Shown: positions 12,323-18,705 of the stretch, piece after piece
Numbering within the stretch: position 1 is the stretch's first letter
How the letters are laid out: each line of letters opens with the position of its first letter
UHGV virus genome: UHGV-0253013
Length of the DNA: 45,926 nucleotides
DNA from: a virus
Reading direction: 5' to 3' (one strand)
The notes under the pieces: model-generated
What the model was told of the DNA's origin: nothing
Seen by the model: only the letters and a program-made list of their open reading frames with translations
Databases searched by the model: none
Position numbers and translations under genes: made by a program

Positions 12323-14326
12323 TCACTTAAAACCAGGTGCGTTTCTTGTAGCTTTCCTCGCTTTCGAAATTCTGCTGTTGCTGTTCTGCAAAGAGGCAGC
12401 CACCTGCTCTTCTATGATGATGCGCAAACGGCCTTCGTCATCCTGTTCGGTGGATACATTGCCGATTTGCGCGCTGGTATTATTTATGATGCTGATATTA
12501 GCTGGGCCACTATTTCCGCTATTATTACCGTTTAACTGCTGCCGTGTTTGGCTTGCATTGGTCGCCCTGCCAGAACCCGCCATCTTGATAATCTCAGGGC
12601 CGCGTTCACCAACCAGGTAACTACCACCAGCGTTCATTTGTCCGCCTTGCTCACGCGCGCCGCTAATCTTGGCGATGTTCGCCACCCCTGCCGCGACAGC
12701 CAGACCTGCGGCAACTGGAGCGAGTGCCGGACCGACAATAGGAATGGCAGCAGTTGATTTATAGGCTTCGATAGCGGCCGTGTAAGTGGCAATAGTCGCT
12801 TGCGTTATGGCGAACGCTTTGTACGCAGCGGACGTCTCCCCTAGTGCGGATTTAGCATCTGCTGCCATGCTGCCGAATGCGTCGGCGGTGGCGTTGGCCT
12901 GTGCAATATTGCTCTGTTCGTTCAGGTTACGCACCGCATTAGCGTATTCTTCTTCACTGATTAGTTTCTGTTTAAGGAAATCGTCCAGTTGCTTAAGTTT
13001 GGCGTCATTCTGCCGTTGGATTTCCTCAAACTCTGTGCCACCCAGCGCCTGTAGTTTCTCCAGATATGCATCAGCATTGTTATACAGTGCATCTCGTTGC
13101 GCCTGAAACTCCGCCATGATGTCACTTTTCGACTTCTCGTAGTCAGCATCGCTTACAAGTTGCTTGTCGTGGAACTCCTGTAACTTAGCCAGTTTCTGTT
13201 TCTCTTTGGCGTCTATCCGTTCTAACTCCGTTCCGGTGTTTGTGTCAATTTGAGCTATAAACTGGTCTGCGGCTTTCTGTGCGCTTTGCTGCGCGCGGGC
13301 GTCGGCACGGGCTTGCGCATCTGCGCGTTTCTTAGCTGCGGTAGCAATACGATTCTGCCTGTCTATCTCCTTCTGTGCTCTATCAGCCTTATCCTTTTCA
13401 TATGTCTTCTCGGATTGCTCCACCCCTTTCCGCTCGGCTGCGCGGGTCTTTTCCTCCACACCAAGGTAGTTAAGTTCATTTCGCAGTTTATTTATTTCCA
13501 TCTGCGCTTCTGGCGTTTTGGCCTTTATGCTGTCTAGGTAGGCAACCAGCCCCTCTCTAGCACCAGGAACCCCAGCAGCGATTGCTTTCTGAGCAACTTC
13601 AATGCTGCGTAACTCTTTGGCGGTCAACCCCGCAGCTTCCGCAGCAGATTCGTACTGGAAAGCCACGGCCCCGGCAGCGTCCCCGCCTTGGGCTATTTGT
13701 GATGCGGCAAGGTTGGTAGTCAACTTCTGAAACAGAGACTGGGCTTTCGTTACCTTATCAATAGCTTCAACAATCTTATCCGCGGTGGAGTTAGCCTGTA
13801 CGGCGGTTGCTTCTAGTGCCTTATTAAGAAATGCCATCTTCTCTGCTGTTGTCGCCCCAACAGCGTCCAGTTTTTCCAGTGCGTCATTCATGTCATACAC
13901 ACCGGGTGTGGCCTCGTTGAGAGCGTCATCAAGGAACTTAGTCGCTTCCTCCAGCTGTTTAGCGGTATCTGTCGAGTTACTCAAAGACGCATACAGCGCT
14001 CCGCCGATTACTGTGGCGATAGTCAATACCGTTCCCGCAATTGGATTGAATGCGGACACCAACTGACTACCTTGTTGCGTGAAAGCCGTGAGGGCTGACT
14101 GCCCCCCTTGGATTTGCACGATAAAGTCCTGTACCTGATACCCGGCGTTACCTATGGACGCCCGCATCGCGTTCATCTTCGGCGTTGCCGCGGAGGTGGT
14201 ATCCGTTAGTTTCTTTGTACTAGAATCCGCTTTCCCGGCGGAACTACTAAGGTTATCTAACTGCTTTGCTGCTTGCTCCGCTCCAGTTGCCTGGACTCGT
14301 ACCATTAAACTCGCGGTGTCAGCCAT
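12323..14326 (-). CDS. tail tape measure protein
   Basis: 667 aa; long Ala/Gln/Lys/Glu-rich coiled-coil region, hydrophobic segments, Gly-rich C-terminus; follows the chaperone pair. Confidence 0.75.
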   Translation of the reverse strand: MADTASLMVRVQATGAEQAAKQLDNLSSSAGKADSSTKKLTDTTSAATPKMNAMRASIGNAGYQVQDFIVQIQGGQSALTAFTQQGSQLVSAFNPIAGTVLTIATVIGGALYASLSNSTDTAKQLEEATKFLDDALNEATPGVYDMNDALEKLDAVGATTAEKMAFLNKALEATAVQANSTADKIVEAIDKVTKAQSLFQKLTTNLAASQIAQGGDAAGAVAFQYESAAEAAGLTAKELRSIEVAQKAIAAGVPGAREGLVAYLDSIKAKTPEAQMEINKLRNELNYLGVEEKTRAAERKGVEQSEKTYEKDKADRAQKEIDRQNRIATAAKKRADAQARADARAQQSAQKAADQFIAQIDTNTGTELERIDAKEKQKLAKLQEFHDKQLVSDADYEKSKSDIMAEFQAQRDALYNNADAYLEKLQALGGTEFEEIQRQNDAKLKQLDDFLKQKLISEEEYANAVRNLNEQSNIAQANATADAFGSMAADAKSALGETSAAYKAFAITQATIATYTAAIEAYKSTAAIPIVGPALAPVAAGLAVAAGVANIAKISGAREQGGQMNAGGSYLVGERGPEIIKMAGSGRATNASQTRQQLNGNNSGNSGPANISIINNTSAQIGNVSTEQDDEGRLRIIIEEQVAASLQNSNSRISKARKATRNAPGFK

Positions 14327-14327
14327 T

Positions 14328-14588
14328 CTAATCGTCCTCGTTACGGCCTTCGAACAGTGCGTCGAGGCCCATTATTAAGTCTACCTCAAGCAACGAGAAC
14401 GGCTGTTTATGCAACTCTGCGTACGCTGTAAGGTGGTGATATTGGAGCATTTCCCTTGGTATTAGCACATTATTGCGACTTACAAACTTCAATGCGTAGT
14501 ATTTATCCATTATTTTCATCATATCACTCGGGCATTCCGGCGGGGTTTCCTCCGGCTCCTTCGGTACGGGCAACCCCATAGCCACCAT
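14328..14588 (-). CDS. tail assembly chaperone, T-like part (possible -1 frameshift extension of the upstream gene)
   Basis: By my hand translation this frame is open upstream to about 14705, overlaps the end of the 14678..15094 gene by about 28 nt and is offset by -1. Confidence 0.4.
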   Translation of the reverse strand: MVAMGLPVPKEPEETPPECPSDMMKIMDKYYALKFVSRNNVLIPREMLQYHHLTAYAELHKQPFSLLEVDLIMGLDALFEGRNEDD

Positions 14589-14677
14589 AGCAGCCTTGTG
14601 CCCGTCGGCGATGGAGTCGAACTCACGTCTCCTTTGCCGTATAACCCAGCGATACCTAGCATATTCGTAAAGCGCTT

Positions 14678-15094
14678 CTACTTTACAGATAAAGCTTTGC
14701 GGCTCTCAGCATGGTGTTGAGCGACGGCCCCTCCCAGCCCTTTATACTCCTTCAACAGCTTGACCAACGCTTTCTTAGTGAACTTCTCCTCGAAGGACCA
14801 CCCTACAACAACAACGGCAGCAAGTGCATCGTTAAGTTTAGCCAATTCACTGTTTAATTCCGTGTTATAGCGCGCCCAGTCTCCCTTCTCTCGGCACTCC
14901 GCGTCTAGGGGTTTCAGACGGTCAAGGATGTCGCGGTAAGCAGAGATAAAATCCTTAGCTGCTGCGATTGAGTCGTCGCAGTCTGGCCCCATCACCTGCA
15001 ACCACTCCCCGGAGTCACTGCCGTCAGGTAGCAGGATAGGCATCTTAGTTCCCGCAGCGTGGCGGGACGCGAAATAAAAATCAGAAAGTTTCAT
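14678..15094 (-). CDS. tail assembly chaperone (G-like)
   Basis: 138 aa acidic protein directly upstream of the tape measure gene; synteny-based. Confidence 0.5.
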   Translation of the reverse strand: MKLSDFYFASRHAAGTKMPILLPDGSDSGEWLQVMGPDCDDSIAAAKDFISAYRDILDRLKPLDAECREKGDWARYNTELNSELAKLNDALAAVVVVGWSFEEKFTKKALVKLLKEYKGLGGAVAQHHAESRKALSVK

Positions 15095-15202
15095 TCTTTA
15101 ATCCTTTGGTTAAGAGGTTGTTGGTTAAAGAGAAATGCACCAGGCGGTAACCAACCGCTTTTCGTGCGCGACACTAGGTGCAAAATTATTCTAACACACT
15201 AC

Positions 15203-15231
15203 TTGCACACCCCAATATAATAGGGTACTAT
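15203..15231 (+). promoter_or_regulatory. sigma70-like promoter, class A (TTGCAC-N17-TACTAT) with embedded AATAGGGTACTATT inverted repeat
   Basis: TTGCAC at 15203-15208, 17-nt spacer, TACTAT at 15226-15231; about 40 nt upstream of the ATG at 15272. Near-identical copies at 25976, 36521 (-) and 37566 (-). Confidence 0.5.
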
Positions 15232-15271
15232 TCACTTACACCAACGTTATTAACTTAAATAAGGAATTAAA

Positions 15272-15598
15272 ATGCGTAAATTAATCATAGCCCTGGGTCT
15301 TATTTCTTTTTGCGCGGTAGGGTCCCAGTGTGAGCAAGTATATAGCGAAACCCCTTTAGTAACTTCCGGGGCGCTTGATTCAGCGCCTCCTGCTGCCGTT
15401 AGTGCGTTTAAAACCGCTGCTATTCGCGAGTGTAATGCGGCCCTGCGGGCTGGCAGGTCTGGCCTGGGTCTTGAATTGATGACATCCCTTGTTGTTGAGT
15501 CTGTAGATGTTAGCAGCCCTGCTTTCAGCAGCCTACTGTTAGCCACTCGTTTGCAAATGGTTACAACCGGATGGGCAATAGGCGCAGAAAGTAAATAG
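15272..15598 (+). CDS. small secreted protein (signal peptide), moron-like
   Basis: N-terminal MRKLIIALGLISFCAVGSQC looks like a signal peptide; AAGGA RBS; own promoter; opposite strand to the flanking tail genes. Confidence 0.5.
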   Translation: MRKLIIALGLISFCAVGSQCEQVYSETPLVTSGALDSAPPAAVSAFKTAAIRECNAALRAGRSGLGLELMTSLVVESVDVSSPAFSSLLLATRLQMVTTGWAIGAESK

Positions 15599-15663
15599 TT
15601 GCCTTTATTTAAAGGAATGCACTGTGGTTAAATAAGACAAATCCTAAACACGAGGAAGTAAGC

Positions 15664-16794
15664 ATGGCCCAGAAGAAAATAACCGACGAACAGTTACAGG
15701 AAGAATTGAACGCCGGGATGAAGAATGTAGACATCGCCCGTAAATACGGCATCTCAGACCGCGTTATTCGTATCCGTAAAGCAAAACTAGCTAAGAAAGG
15801 CGTAGGCCACGGACGCGACGTTAGCCACCTCGTACCAGACGGCTACAAGATTAAGGGCACGTCGTCACTTGTGGACGAGTTCGGCAACACTAAGTTGCAA
15901 TGGGTTAAGACCGACACCGACGCCGAACGTCAGGTCGAGTTGATGAAAGCCGTAATAGAAGGTATGAAGTCAGAGATTACGCCGGTTGCGCCTGTTAAAG
16001 CGACTCGCGCCAAACGCAACGATAAACTACTCAATCTTTACACGGTATCTGATTTTCATCTCGGTATGCTGGCTTGGGCCGACGAGAGCGGCGACGACTG
16101 GGATATGAAGATTGCGGAAGACCTGTTCTCCCGTTGGTTCGATGCTGCATTTCAGAAAGCACCAGATGCAGCAACTGGGGTTATTAACCTGCTGGGTGAT
16201 TTCGCGCACTTCGATAGTCTGGTTGCCGTTACACCCGCAAGCGGTCACGCCCTTGACGCTGACACTCGCTATCAGAAACTGGTGCGCTACATGATTCGTA
16301 TGGTCCGCCGTGTGGTGGATATGGCTCTGGTTAAGCATAAAAATGTTCGCTTGCTTATCGTACAAGGGAACCACGACGAAAGCGGAATGATTTGGTTGGC
16401 GGAGATGTTCAGTACGCTGTACGACAACGAGCCGCGTGTGTTCGTAGATACGTCGCCGGATGTCTACAAGATGGTGCAACATGGCAAAACGACTCTGTTC
16501 TTTACACACGGGCATAAATGCCGGTTTGAGGTGGTCGAACCCATTATGATAGCTAAGTTCAGAAAAGCATTTGGCGAAAGCGAGTACAGTTACGCGCATG
16601 TAGGACATCTCCACCATCAAAAGATTGTAGAAAGTAGGAATATGGTAGTGGAACAGCATCGCACTCTCGCGGCGAAAGATGCATATGCTTCTCGCGGCGG
16701 GTGGATGTCTAAGAGGTCCGCTAATGTCATAACCTATAGTTCAGAGTTCGGGGAAGTAGGTAGGCTTTCAATCTCACCGGAGATGCTAAGATGA
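15664..16794 (+). CDS. HTH domain fused to a calcineurin-like metallophosphoesterase (SbcD/Mre11-like or class III phosphodiesterase-like)
   Basis: N-terminal DIARKYGISDRVIRIRKAKL HTH-like; MPE motifs SDFHLG, GDFAHFD, QGNHDE, FTHGH, HVGHLHH in canonical order. Confidence 0.65.
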   Translation: MAQKKITDEQLQEELNAGMKNVDIARKYGISDRVIRIRKAKLAKKGVGHGRDVSHLVPDGYKIKGTSSLVDEFGNTKLQWVKTDTDAERQVELMKAVIEGMKSEITPVAPVKATRAKRNDKLLNLYTVSDFHLGMLAWADESGDDWDMKIAEDLFSRWFDAAFQKAPDAATGVINLLGDFAHFDSLVAVTPASGHALDADTRYQKLVRYMIRMVRRVVDMALVKHKNVRLLIVQGNHDESGMIWLAEMFSTLYDNEPRVFVDTSPDVYKMVQHGKTTLFFTHGHKCRFEVVEPIMIAKFRKAFGESEYSYAHVGHLHHQKIVESRNMVVEQHRTLAAKDAYASRGGWMSKRSANVITYSSEFGEVGRLSISPEMLR

Positions 16795-17261
16795 AGTATC
16801 TTGATGTTTCAAAACAATTTAAATACTGCCCTGAGACGGGGCAGGTTACCAGGATATCTACTGGTGCTGAGGTTGGTACGGTTGGTGTAAGAGGTTATTT
16901 GTGCTGCGGTATGGGTGGTAAAACAGTGTATGTCCACCGCATAGCATGGTGTCTTTATAATAAATGCAACTTAGACAGGAAAACTCAAATAGACCACATA
17001 AACCATAACAGGCTAGACAATAGGATAGAAAATCTACGCGCCACCGACAATACAGGGAACAGTAAAAATAAAACTATGCGAAAGATAAATAAATCCGGGG
17101 CCACAGGTGTAAGTTTCCACAAAGCCGCGGGTAAGTGGCGCGCGTTTATAAAAGTTAACTACAAACAAGTACATTTAGGGCTTTACGACGATTTTGATGT
17201 AGCGGTTGCCGCGCGTAAAGCCGCTGAAAGTAAATACGGTTTCCATGAAAACCATGAGTAG
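16791..17261 (+). CDS. HNH homing endonuclease with AP2-like domain (paralog 2 of 3)
   Basis: QIDHINHNRLDNRIENLRAT HNH motif; C-terminal SGATGVSFHKAAGKWRAFIKV...YGFHENHE closely parallels the 1270..1788 and 41257..41757 products. Confidence 0.8.
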   Translation: MKYLDVSKQFKYCPETGQVTRISTGAEVGTVGVRGYLCCGMGGKTVYVHRIAWCLYNKCNLDRKTQIDHINHNRLDNRIENLRATDNTGNSKNKTMRKINKSGATGVSFHKAAGKWRAFIKVNYKQVHLGLYDDFDVAVAARKAAESKYGFHENHE

Positions 17262-17274
17262 GGGAAAGTGATTT

Positions 17275-17505
17275 ATGACTTCAAAATACAACCGCACAAT
17301 GACAAACGCTCACGGCAGCACTATGACAGTAGACGTTTATGATGTGCTACGTGCTTTCGACATCCGCGACCCTGCGTTACAGCACGCATTGAAGAAGCTA
17401 TTGTGTATGGGCCTTCGCGGACACAAGGACACCGGAACAGACTTAGCGGAAGCAATTGAAAGCCTGGAGAAGTTACGGGAGTATAGAAGCAATATCGACG
17501 AGTAA
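17275..17505 (+). CDS. hypothetical protein
   Basis: ORF after the HNH gene, followed by a terminator. Confidence 0.4.
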   Translation: MTSKYNRTMTNAHGSTMTVDVYDVLRAFDIRDPALQHALKKLLCMGLRGHKDTGTDLAEAIESLEKLREYRSNIDE

Positions 17506-17532: not shown

Positions 17533-18705
17533 TTATACGTAACTAATACGTTGAATTACGATAGACGACTGATACTGATTGCCTGTGGACTGTCCTTCTA
17601 TGCTCTGAGTGATTGACTCAGGCCCGCCAATCTCTGGCGTAACCGCCGTAAGTTCCGCACGTTTCAAACTGAAAGACATAGCCCCGTTTACCCCCGCCAG
17701 AATAGAGTTAATCTCTACCTGCTGTTCGTTGATAAACTTCTGAATCATCGCCATGTCGTACAGCTTGCCGGAGATGGAGAATGTGTTAGCTGCGCGGCCG
17801 CGTTCCACGAACGCGACGCTACTGTTGCCAAGTTCAAACTGCGCGGAAGCACCGTTGTCGTTGGTGATGGTCAGAGTATCGCAACGCAACGGCGTAGAAC
17901 CGTCGAACACAGACACATCTACGGATGAGAACGGCTCGTCACCAAACGTAACAGAGGAGAAGTCGGAACCAGACGGCGCCGCGGTAAGAATCTCCTGGCT
18001 GCGACCGATGAATGGGAAGCTGCCAGTTACCATCGCGTTAACAGCCTGTTCGATGGTAAAACCAGAAACTTCCACGCCTTTGGTTAACGTGTACGCGTTA
18101 GTACCGCCGCACTGGCCTTTGTACCAGGTAAGGATAGAGAACGTCTTACACGTGTTACCGGTTTCCAGCGTGTCGCCGGTTTTAGCCTTACTAGTTTTTG
18201 TCTCGGTGGTCAGGGTGTGTTGGATGCCTGCACCAGTAACAACCGTAGCCGTTACTGCAGTAACAATAAATGGTTTTGCGTTATCTCCTGTTAAATCGGT
18301 AAACGCAATCAGGTCGCCTACCTCAACTCCGTCAGTGATAAAACTGCCGGTAGCGCGTGTGAACGTCTTGCCCGCCGGTGCGACCGTAATCGACAGACTG
18401 GACAGGGAAACACCGGATTGCCACGTAGAGCCTAAAGCACCAGCCAGCCAGTCATCCTGGCTTTTCGAGCTAAGCTCGATCGCGTATTCACCGCTAACCT
18501 GTTTGTTACCGGTGCGGATGGATGTAGTTTCACGGCTGCCGTCCAGTTCGTTGGAGGTCAGCGTGTCGCGGGTGATAGCAGGAACACCGCCAGTGTTACG
18601 CAACGGTGACCAGACCGGGTTAGTCGGTGTTACGCCCGGGGTGACTTCCGCCACATAGAATTGCGCGGTATTCGCGCCCTTAAAAGGAGTTGTAGCCATA
18701 TTCAC
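17533..18705 (-). CDS. major tail protein
   Basis: 390 aa Thr/Ser/Gly-rich structural protein between the neck genes and the tail chaperones; synteny. Confidence 0.6.
   Translation of the reverse strand: MNMATTPFKGANTAQFYVAEVTPGVTPTNPVWSPLRNTGGVPAITRDTLTSNELDGSRETTSIRTGNKQVSGEYAIELSSKSQDDWLAGALGSTWQSGVSLSSLSITVAPAGKTFTRATGSFITDGVEVGDLIAFTDLTGDNAKPFIVTAVTATVVTGAGIQHTLTTETKTSKAKTGDTLETGNTCKTFSILTWYKGQCGGTNAYTLTKGVEVSGFTIEQAVNAMVTGSFPFIGRSQEILTAAPSGSDFSSVTFGDEPFSSVDVSVFDGSTPLRCDTLTITNDNGASAQFELGNSSVAFVERGRAANTFSISGKLYDMAMIQKFINEQQVEINSILAGVNGAMSFSLKRAELTAVTPEIGGPESITQSIEGQSTGNQYQSSIVIQRISYV

Follow-up and report, generated by a model that had tools for sequence, protein, structure and literature searches.

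A conserved A_AAG tetramer abutting the stop codon as the probable -1 frameshift site between the tail assembly chaperone genes of a Guernseyvirinae-like siphophage

The window analysed here is the whole 45,926-nucleotide stretch of UHGV virus genome UHGV-0253013. On its minus strand, two overlapping reading frames precede the gene for the tape measure protein. The features of the locus, all on the minus strand, are as follows.

17533..18705, minus strand: tail tube gene (Pfam Phage_tube_2, E=1.7e-36), the next structural gene upstream of G
15094..14678, minus strand: gene G, putative tail assembly chaperone; ATG at 15094, TAG at 14680-14678; 138 aa, 15.3 kDa
14708-14706, minus strand: TGA that closes the -1 frame upstream; the frame is open from 14705
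14705..14681, minus strand: open stretch shared by the 0 and -1 frames, 25 nt of G sense codons
14681..14328, minus strand: T segment in the -1 frame; Val139 is GTA 14681-14679, the stop is TAG 14330-14328; adds 117 aa
14586..14588, minus strand: first ATG in the -1 frame, 39 codons into conserved T and the start chosen by the ORF finder
15094..14681 then 14681..14328, minus strand: predicted joined coding sequence GT; 255 aa, 29.0 kDa
12323..14326, minus strand: tape measure protein gene; 667 aa, phrog_1538 (E=3e-104), Pfam TMP_2

Along the direction of transcription, the ORF 14588..14328 is in -1 relative to G (on the minus strand, 15094 mod 3 = 1 and 14588 mod 3 = 2). A preliminary description of this DNA held that the frame of the ORF stays open up to 14705 and overlaps the last codons of the 14678..15094 gene with a -1 offset. 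Both statements are confirmed: the frame is closed by the TGA at 14708-14706, and the 25-nt overlap has the sequence quoted there, reading GAGCCGCAAAGCTTTATCTGTAAAG on the minus strand (14705..14681). Translation of the window gives ...TCT GTA AAG TAG as the 3' end of gene G. Between 14705 and the ATG at 14588, a distance of 39 codons, the -1 frame contains no ATG, GTG or TTG. The tape measure gene begins 2 nt past the T stop. Upstream, a plus-strand cassette at 15272..17505 (unknown, exonuclease, HNH and a fragment) lies between the tube gene and G, and the tube gene and G are likewise interrupted in Kagunavirus relatives. The window holds no tRNA genes, and a promoter scan of 14200..15700 returned no sigma-70-like site.

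Profile searches match both frames to families of tail assembly chaperones. In Pfam, G matches Phage_TAC_4 (PF08748; E=3.5e-6, 27.7 bits against a cut-off of 21.1) and the -1 ORF matches Phage_TAC_18 (PF23812; E=1.2e-10, 41.7 bits against a cut-off of 27). The profile phrog_15027 ('tail assembly chaperone', 259 positions) aligns with G over positions 1-138 (E=1e-50) and with residues 7-123 of the -1 frame over positions 137-258. As this profile spans both ORFs without a break, it must derive from fused proteins, and its alignment puts the junction at Lys138-Val139; phrog_313 is also matched by the pair. An alignment of fused G-T proteins is free of gaps, K138, V139, A141 and L142 are invariant in it, and protein conservation of the -1 frame begins at the codon that overlaps the G stop. 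With the fused G-T protein as query, 501 phage records were matched, and in 487 of them at least 80% of the query was covered by a pair of segments lying in different frames. Escherichia phage MirsaeidiM_Esher4 is the nearest record (78.6% nucleotide identity, 94.9% identity of the fused protein); more distant relatives belong to Kagunavirus, Jerseyvirus and Cornellvirus (Guernseyvirinae), and the hosts of the closest relatives are E. coli and Salmonella, in both of which one tRNA-Lys (mnm5s2UUU) reads AAA and AAG (PMC5009743). Within the window, A_AAG followed by a stop terminates one of 57 crudely called genes, namely G. This single occurrence, together with the recurrence of the two-frame layout in the 487 records, puts the arrangement beyond chance. 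A search for homologues of solved structure yielded noise, the best match (E=0.006) being to the unrelated TNFAIP8.

Taken together, G and T are very probably the tail assembly chaperone pair of a Guernseyvirinae-like siphophage, an assignment made jointly with that of a low-level -1 slip at A_AAG. The preliminary description had proposed the G/GT geometry that is conserved upstream of tape measure genes, and this proposal is borne out by the TAC-family matches, the tape measure neighbour, the fused PHROG profile and conservation throughout the subfamily. Judged from the sequences, membership in the G/GT class rests on position, geometry, homology and conservation; what the predicted pair lacks is the canonical heptamer, which is typical of the class and not required by it.

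No X_XXY_YYZ heptamer occurs in 14705..14681, as had been correctly noted before. Two Z_ZZN tetramers are present in the 0-frame register of the overlap, T_TTA (14693..14690) and A_AAG (14684..14681), and the second of these lies on the last sense codon of G. The elements at this junction are:

14681..14687, minus strand: proposed shift site T_GTA_AAG, core A_AAG at 14684..14681
14678..14680, minus strand: 0-frame stop TAG directly 3' of AAG, proposed to act as a 'shifty stop' pause; the next base is A
14670..14675, minus strand: conserved 3' block GCGCTT (GCGYTG in relatives), 5 nt past the stop

Related loci, 96 in all, were drawn from GenBank phages and from IMG/VR, and we analysed the 85 distinct junction contexts among them. 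Alignment with related phages had been suggested as a check, and it shows the same arrangement to be kept: NNA_AAG is followed immediately by TAG or TAA in 83 of the 85 distinct junctions, a count that, like those below, overstates the number of independent observations, the sampled phages being of shared ancestry. A_AAG itself is invariant in all 85 aligned relatives. The codon 5' of AAG may be GAA, GCA, GTA, AAA, TCA or GGA, so that the amino acid is E, A, V, K, S or G and the third base is always A. Retention of this third-position A under a varying amino acid points to a slip site rather than to a protein constraint, for the -1 frame is not read there. The commonest form is G_GAA_AAG (57 of 81 contexts). 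At the same position, three relatives carry a canonical heptamer, A_AAA_AAG (L017 and L018), which is the heptamer of dnaX, or G_GGA_AAG (L070), and T_GTA_AAG, the least canonical member, is seen in the window alone among the sampled sequences. At the site, most relatives have a run of four A residues (AAAA), and the window has one of three (AAA). The overlap of the 0 and -1 frames shrinks to as little as 7 nt, C_GCA_AAG, in two relatives (L067, L068) and is 16-22 nt in many others; intersecting the shortest overlaps confines the shift to the last two sense codons. Two junctions depart from the common pattern. In one (L060), A_AAG and the downstream spacing are kept and the TAA/TAG has become TTA, which moves the stop one codon later; adjacency of the stop is thus not absolute. 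The other, from the outgroup Serratia phage Opt-155 (L016), is a different junction, with CGA_AAG two codons before the stop. The geometry of the frames, the homology and the family-wide nucleotide conservation of the site can all be read directly from the sequences. They indicate that A_AAG on the last sense codon is, in all likelihood, the slip site. The preliminary description expected a non-canonical site, which holds in that the site is not a heptamer; it is, however, a familiar one, since A_AAG, here within T_GTA_AAG, is a recognised minimal -1 motif.

Nucleotide constraint at the junction is sharply localized. In a scan of pairwise synonymous differences across 85 fused ORFs, the ratio of observed to expected differences is about 1 across both ORFs, and its persistence through the -1 frame marks this frame as protein-coding from the junction on. 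A sharp drop, to 0.04-0.34, occurs at fusion codons 137-141 only (7-codon window). Codon entropy is zero in 3 of 59 conserved amino-acid columns: Lys138 (AAG in 85/85), Val139 (GTA in 85/85) and Ala141 (GCG in 84/84). The other conserved Lys column, by comparison, is split between AAA (57) and AAG (28), and all four codons occur in each of the two remaining Val columns and in each of four further conserved Ala columns. Conservation of GTA at codon 139 follows automatically from AAG and TAR and is not independent evidence. The triplet GCG (14675..14673) encodes Ala141 in the -1 frame, and its synonymous site never varies (84/84). In the stacked junctions, positions +8 to +13 are near-invariant. 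Gene overlap does not account for conservation of the GCG triplet. Judging by this pattern, the GCG block is possibly a linear 3' context element.

The identity of the stop codon is likewise restricted. Across 81 contexts, the junction stop is TAG in 55, TAA in 26 and TGA in none, whereas the whole window uses TAA 26, TGA 22 and TAG 9 times; TGA is avoided although it would keep Val139 (as GTG). The base following the junction stop is A in 66 contexts, C in 14, T in 1 and G in 0, that is, A or C in 80 of 81. A or C after a stop reportedly makes for weak termination contexts in E. coli. This base doubles as position two of -1 codon 140, and a protein constraint is therefore a possible cause of this preference.

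We found no conserved 3' RNA structure: RNAalifold, applied to the 81 stacked junctions in five windows, returned -0.37 kcal/mol and a single 3-bp helix. Single-sequence folds compared with shuffles gave z-scores of -2.2 to +0.6, and windows of 30, 45 and 60 nt starting from GCG fall in the 42nd-59th percentile of the background of their own locus. Upstream, column counts over -25 to -8, which include the 10-17 nt interval, revealed no conserved GGAGG-like or purine-rich block that could serve as a Shine-Dalgarno-like stimulator. A perfect 6-bp inverted repeat, GUAAAG (14686..14681) with CUUUAC (14672..14667), was considered as a stimulator and rejected; it contains the slip site itself, and it is not conserved, being imperfect already in the closest relative. 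The annotation of phage Snoke cites a Jerseyvirinae paper (PMID 25663216) for a 'predicted secondary structure' at this place.

How else might T be expressed? It could be made separately, by independent or re-initiated translation, with the overlap reflecting compact gene packing only; the candidate starts are the ATG at 14588, which would give a product of 86 aa and 9.95 kDa, and a non-canonical codon near the G stop. In several GenBank annotations, as in the output of ORF finders, T does stand as a gene of its own, with CTG, TTG or GTG starts, and Jerseyvirus-type relatives have, 8 nt beyond the stop, a TTG preceded by AGGA; the ATG at 14588 of the window is itself preceded, at a distance of 5 nt, by AAGG. 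That ATG is nevertheless specific to the window, the relatives encoding Leu there (column 211: CTT, TTG, CTA, TTA or CTG), and a start at this point would forfeit 31 conserved residues (V139 to A169), among them the invariant F159, D160, I162, G165 and H166. Near the G stop, codon 142, which gene callers take as a CTG or TTG start in relatives, reads CTT in the window and CTC in its closest relative, neither of them a start, and in several relatives (L024, L029, L047) the first canonical start in the -1 frame comes 281-323 nt past the stop. Separate translation would, moreover, leave unexplained both the invariance of A_AAG and the constancy of the A that ends the preceding codon, whatever amino acid that codon encodes. 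With either candidate start, we consider it improbable.

A -1 shift at the T_TTA tetramer (14693..14690), yielding ...RKAFICKVEAL..., is less probable still. It is the sole other Z_ZZN tetramer in the 0-frame register of the overlap, and U_UUA shifts 1.8 to 3.6-fold above background when followed by a pseudoknot (PMC4066793); the same work, however, finds the motif to be much weaker than A_AAG. The site is also not conserved, in that Leu135 is encoded by TTA, TTG, CTG, CTC or CTT after variable preceding bases, and in relatives whose overlaps measure 7-22 nt the position lies behind the stop of the -1 frame. Least probable of all, to the point of being negligible, is a change of frame at the RNA level through transcriptional slippage of RNA polymerase. 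A short run of A is indeed present, three residues in the window and four in most relatives, yet this falls far short of the length needed. Polymerase slippage becomes productive on homopolymers of some 7 residues or longer. The G that is conserved behind the A residues and the adjacent stop suit tRNA re-pairing instead. A hop within the 0 frame, from AAG to AAG past the stop, was also rejected: it would not lead out of the 0 frame into the conserved frame.

The best reading of the locus, and to us a highly probable one on sequence grounds, has tRNA-Lys at the stop codon slip in the -1 direction, at low frequency, from AAG to AAA, which would produce a 29 kDa GT protein beside the 15 kDa G protein. 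Most ribosomes would terminate at the UAG (14680-14678) and release the 15.3 kDa G. A small fraction would slip one base back on A_AAG (14684..14681), where the single enterobacterial tRNA-Lys (anticodon mnm5s2UUU) that decodes AAG could re-pair with the overlapping AAA. The GUA codon 5' of the slip cannot re-pair, which argues for slippage of a single tRNA on Z_ZZN (an NNA_AAG hexamer) as opposed to tandem slippage. The next codon would then be GUA (Val139) in place of UAG, and reading onward in the -1 frame would give GT, with the junction ...ALSVK-VEALYEYAR.... At the moment of decision, peptidyl-tRNA-Lys would occupy the P site, and RF1 acting on UAG would compete with decoding of the -1 GUA by tRNA-Val. 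Alternatively, the slip might take place in the course of translocation, while AAG occupies the A site. The pause that RNA structure provides elsewhere probably comes from the adjacent UAG-A stop. We infer this slow-termination pause from three observations, namely that the stop is adjacent in nearly all junctions, that it is always UAG or UAA, and that no structure is conserved. The occurrence of the slip and its efficiency are likewise inferred, as are the role of the stop codon and the functions of the proteins. Without stimulation by the stop codon or the GCG block, the shift could be very inefficient. On the lambda model, binding of the tape measure protein would fall to G and to the G portion of GT, and the T portion would serve to bring in tube subunits.

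This proposal can be set against well-studied systems. In lambda, the tape measure protein is the binding partner of G, and tube subunits are brought in by T (PMC5009743). The two loci share a pair of overlapping ORFs before the tape measure gene, the second in -1 and without a start of its own, and low-level shifting into -1 close to the 3' end of G that yields a G-T fusion (here predicted). The A_AAG half of the site is identical, and the exact lambda heptamer G_GGA_AAG is found in one relative (L070) at the position of the slip site in the window. In lambda, however, the full G_GGA_AAG allows tandem re-pairing of tRNAs, whereas on T_GTA_AAG tRNA-Lys alone can re-pair. The window further differs from lambda in the position of the slip codon, which is the final sense codon and abuts the stop, in the Pfam families of its proteins (Phage_TAC_4 and Phage_TAC_18), and in the separation of the tube gene from G by an inverted 2.3 kb cassette.

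Closer counterparts of the slip itself are found among tetramer sites. No other tetramer in E. coli comes close to A_AA.G in its tendency to shift (PMC4066793). In combination with the IS3 pseudoknot, the six active tetramers shifted at 0.26-5.6%; in reporters without a stimulator, tetramer motifs averaged 0.147%, against a no-motif background of 0.112% (PMC4066793). NNA_AAG sites are productive in IS1222 and incidental in B. subtilis cdd, and E. coli has one tRNA-Lys for both AAA and AAG (PMC5009743). With IS1222 (G_CGA_AAG), cdd (A_CGA_AAG) and the synthetic A_AA.G sites, the window shares the slip of a single tRNA-Lys from AAG to AAA (PMC4066793), here as a prediction, and with NNA_AAG sites it shares a 5' codon that ends in A and does not re-pair, and a probably low intrinsic efficiency. 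Unlike in IS1222 and cdd, the 5' codon is GUA in the window, and GAA, GCA or others in relatives, and not CGA. IS1222 and the reporter constructs need a downstream structure, in contrast to the junction in the window, where none is conserved, and in the window a stop codon directly follows the slip site, which sets it apart from IS1222, cdd and the synthetic A_AA.G. In this last respect the site resembles shifty stops, such as prfB (CUU_UGA), antizyme and the tail shaft gene of Listeria phage PSA, where a slip-prone P-site codon abuts the stop (PMC5009743); in both cases, tardy reading of the stop would allow the tRNA to re-pair. Those three shift +1, however, whereas the shift in the window would be -1, with a role for the stop suggested by conservation only.

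In two homologous phages, Kagunavirus fFiEco02 (MT711523, QNO11587) and Jerseyvirus Shelanagig (MK931446, QEG07365), a joined 'tail assembly chaperone frameshift product' is annotated. Their G proteins are about 40-56% identical to G of the window, and they share its geometry and the A_AAG_TAR junction. Both carry G_GAA_AAG, whereas the window is alone among the sampled sequences both in having T_GTA_AAG and in having CTT at codon 142. The genome note on phage Shashou mentions 'no canonical slippery sequence' (PMC6776780). In the literature searched, we found no experimental evidence for a GT fusion in Guernseyvirinae-like phages and nothing relevant on Kagunavirus or Jerseyvirus in connection with 'frameshift'. 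The A_AAG type of site and the annotated frameshift in relatives are thus already known, and the accepted picture of G/GT is unchanged. What we could not find described are the exact site, its invariance throughout the family next to a UAG or UAA stop, and the unvarying GCG downstream. As A_AAG by a stop is the minimal known motif, the locus amounts to an ordinary feature with an unusual signal.

The family provides a natural series of variants at one site, from the bare tetramer in T_GTA_AAG up to A_AAA_AAG and G_GGA_AAG, the best known heptamers. This series lacks a stimulatory structure and stands almost always against UAG or UAA, and is hence suited to studying the tuning of low-level -1 frameshifting by a stop codon and by linear 3' context. 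A more speculative notion, which we regard as rather doubtful, is that A_AAG_UAR_NN_GCG_YUG as a whole constitutes a structure-free recoding signal in which the RF1-read stop in a weak context and the linear GCG set the ratio of G to GT. The GCG, at +8 to +10 from AAG, might act through the ribosomal mRNA entry channel or through a contact with rRNA. If true, this would be a -1 'shifty stop' with a 3' stimulator that is sequence-specific, not structural, and undescribed for tail chaperone genes.

These findings also bear on annotation. Search tools that look for heptamers only will miss the A_AAG sites of such chaperone pairs. The T ORF is called inconsistently in this phage and in hundreds of Guernseyvirinae-like genomes, internal ATG codons being among the starts chosen ad hoc, and should be given as a joined coding sequence with the predicted slip at A_AAG. 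GenBank records other than the two with a joined product list T as a separate 'hypothetical protein', with inconsistent CTG, TTG or GTG starts.

At the homologous position, a full canonical heptamer is found in three of the related loci, L017 and L018 (IMG/VR 3300027985) and L070 (IMG/VR 2974654489), where the junctions read A_AAA_AAG_TAG and G_GGA_AAG_TAG and lie at about 1010-1020 within each locus. Family members therefore range from those with only the tetramer to those with the heptamers that are best known. Two further loci depart from the usual pattern in other ways. The junction in L060 (IMG/VR 2162886012_000023, about 1026-1045) reads GCA_AAG_TTA_TAG, such that the stop is shifted one codon 3' while A_AAG and the GCGCTG spacing are retained; either the adjacent stop has been lost in a natural variant, or the 5.7-kb metagenome contig contains a sequencing error. 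In L035 (IMG/VR 638275545_000001), a frame change and internal stops at about 880-1010 disrupt the first chaperone gene, G, yet the junction, G_GAA_AAG_TAG, and the frame of the second, T, are undamaged. The record is an older one, and faulty assembly or sequencing is the probable cause of this disruption.

Within the 57 crudely called genes of the whole window, only 41 of 343 AAG codons (12%) occur as in-frame A_AAG, a share below the roughly 25% expected with a random preceding base and consistent with avoidance of the shift-prone tetramer elsewhere in the window. Two features lie at or near the proposed slip site:

14667..14686, minus strand: inverted repeat GUAAAG...CUUUAC, 6 bp without a mismatch, loop of 8 nt
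14670..14675, minus strand: GCG-containing block, at the same position across the 96 related loci

The slip site itself falls inside the inverted repeat. The repeat is specific to the window and owes its existence to the CTT codon of Leu142, unique to the window at this position; one mismatch interrupts the repeat in the closest relative, and it is absent from the others. Read in the -1 frame, the GCG that lies 5 nt past the stop of G encodes Ala141; it shows an unvarying synonymous site (84/84) and sits in a GCGYTG block that is near-invariant among the relatives. Neither RNA structure nor an overlapping ORF nor a start codon explains the invariant GCG.

The outgroup, Serratia phage vB_SmaS_Opt-155 (NC_074758, 1312-1335), shares with the window the order and geometry of G, -1 ORF and tape measure gene, but its junction differs: CGA_AAG, the hexamer of IS1222/cdd, lies two codons ahead of CGG_AAG_TAA. 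Its downstream ORF has AAGGAG and GTG of its own, and its T part shows no kinship at the sequence level.

Annotation of the T ORF in GenBank is inconsistent systematically throughout the subfamily. Across records PQ579973, PQ850596, MT588083, MK931441, NC_073209 and PP856717, its start is given at no fewer than four different positions and codon types, with CTG, TTG, GTG or an internal ATG as start codon, or the ORF is left unannotated (PhiSTP1).

Upstream of the chaperone genes, the window carries an inverted cassette:

15272..17505, plus strand: whole cassette, between tail tube gene and chaperone genes
within 15272..17505, plus strand: phrog_14165, unknown function
15664..16794, plus strand: DNA repair exonuclease/metallophosphoesterase
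16791..17261, plus strand: HNH endonuclease
17275..17505, plus strand: 76-aa ORF matching phrog_2452 / 'ATPase' PHROG

At the position of phrog_14165, relatives are annotated with a T4 Imm-like superinfection immunity gene. Because its match is confined to the C-terminal third of the profile, the 76-aa ORF may be a gene fragment beside the homing endonuclease.
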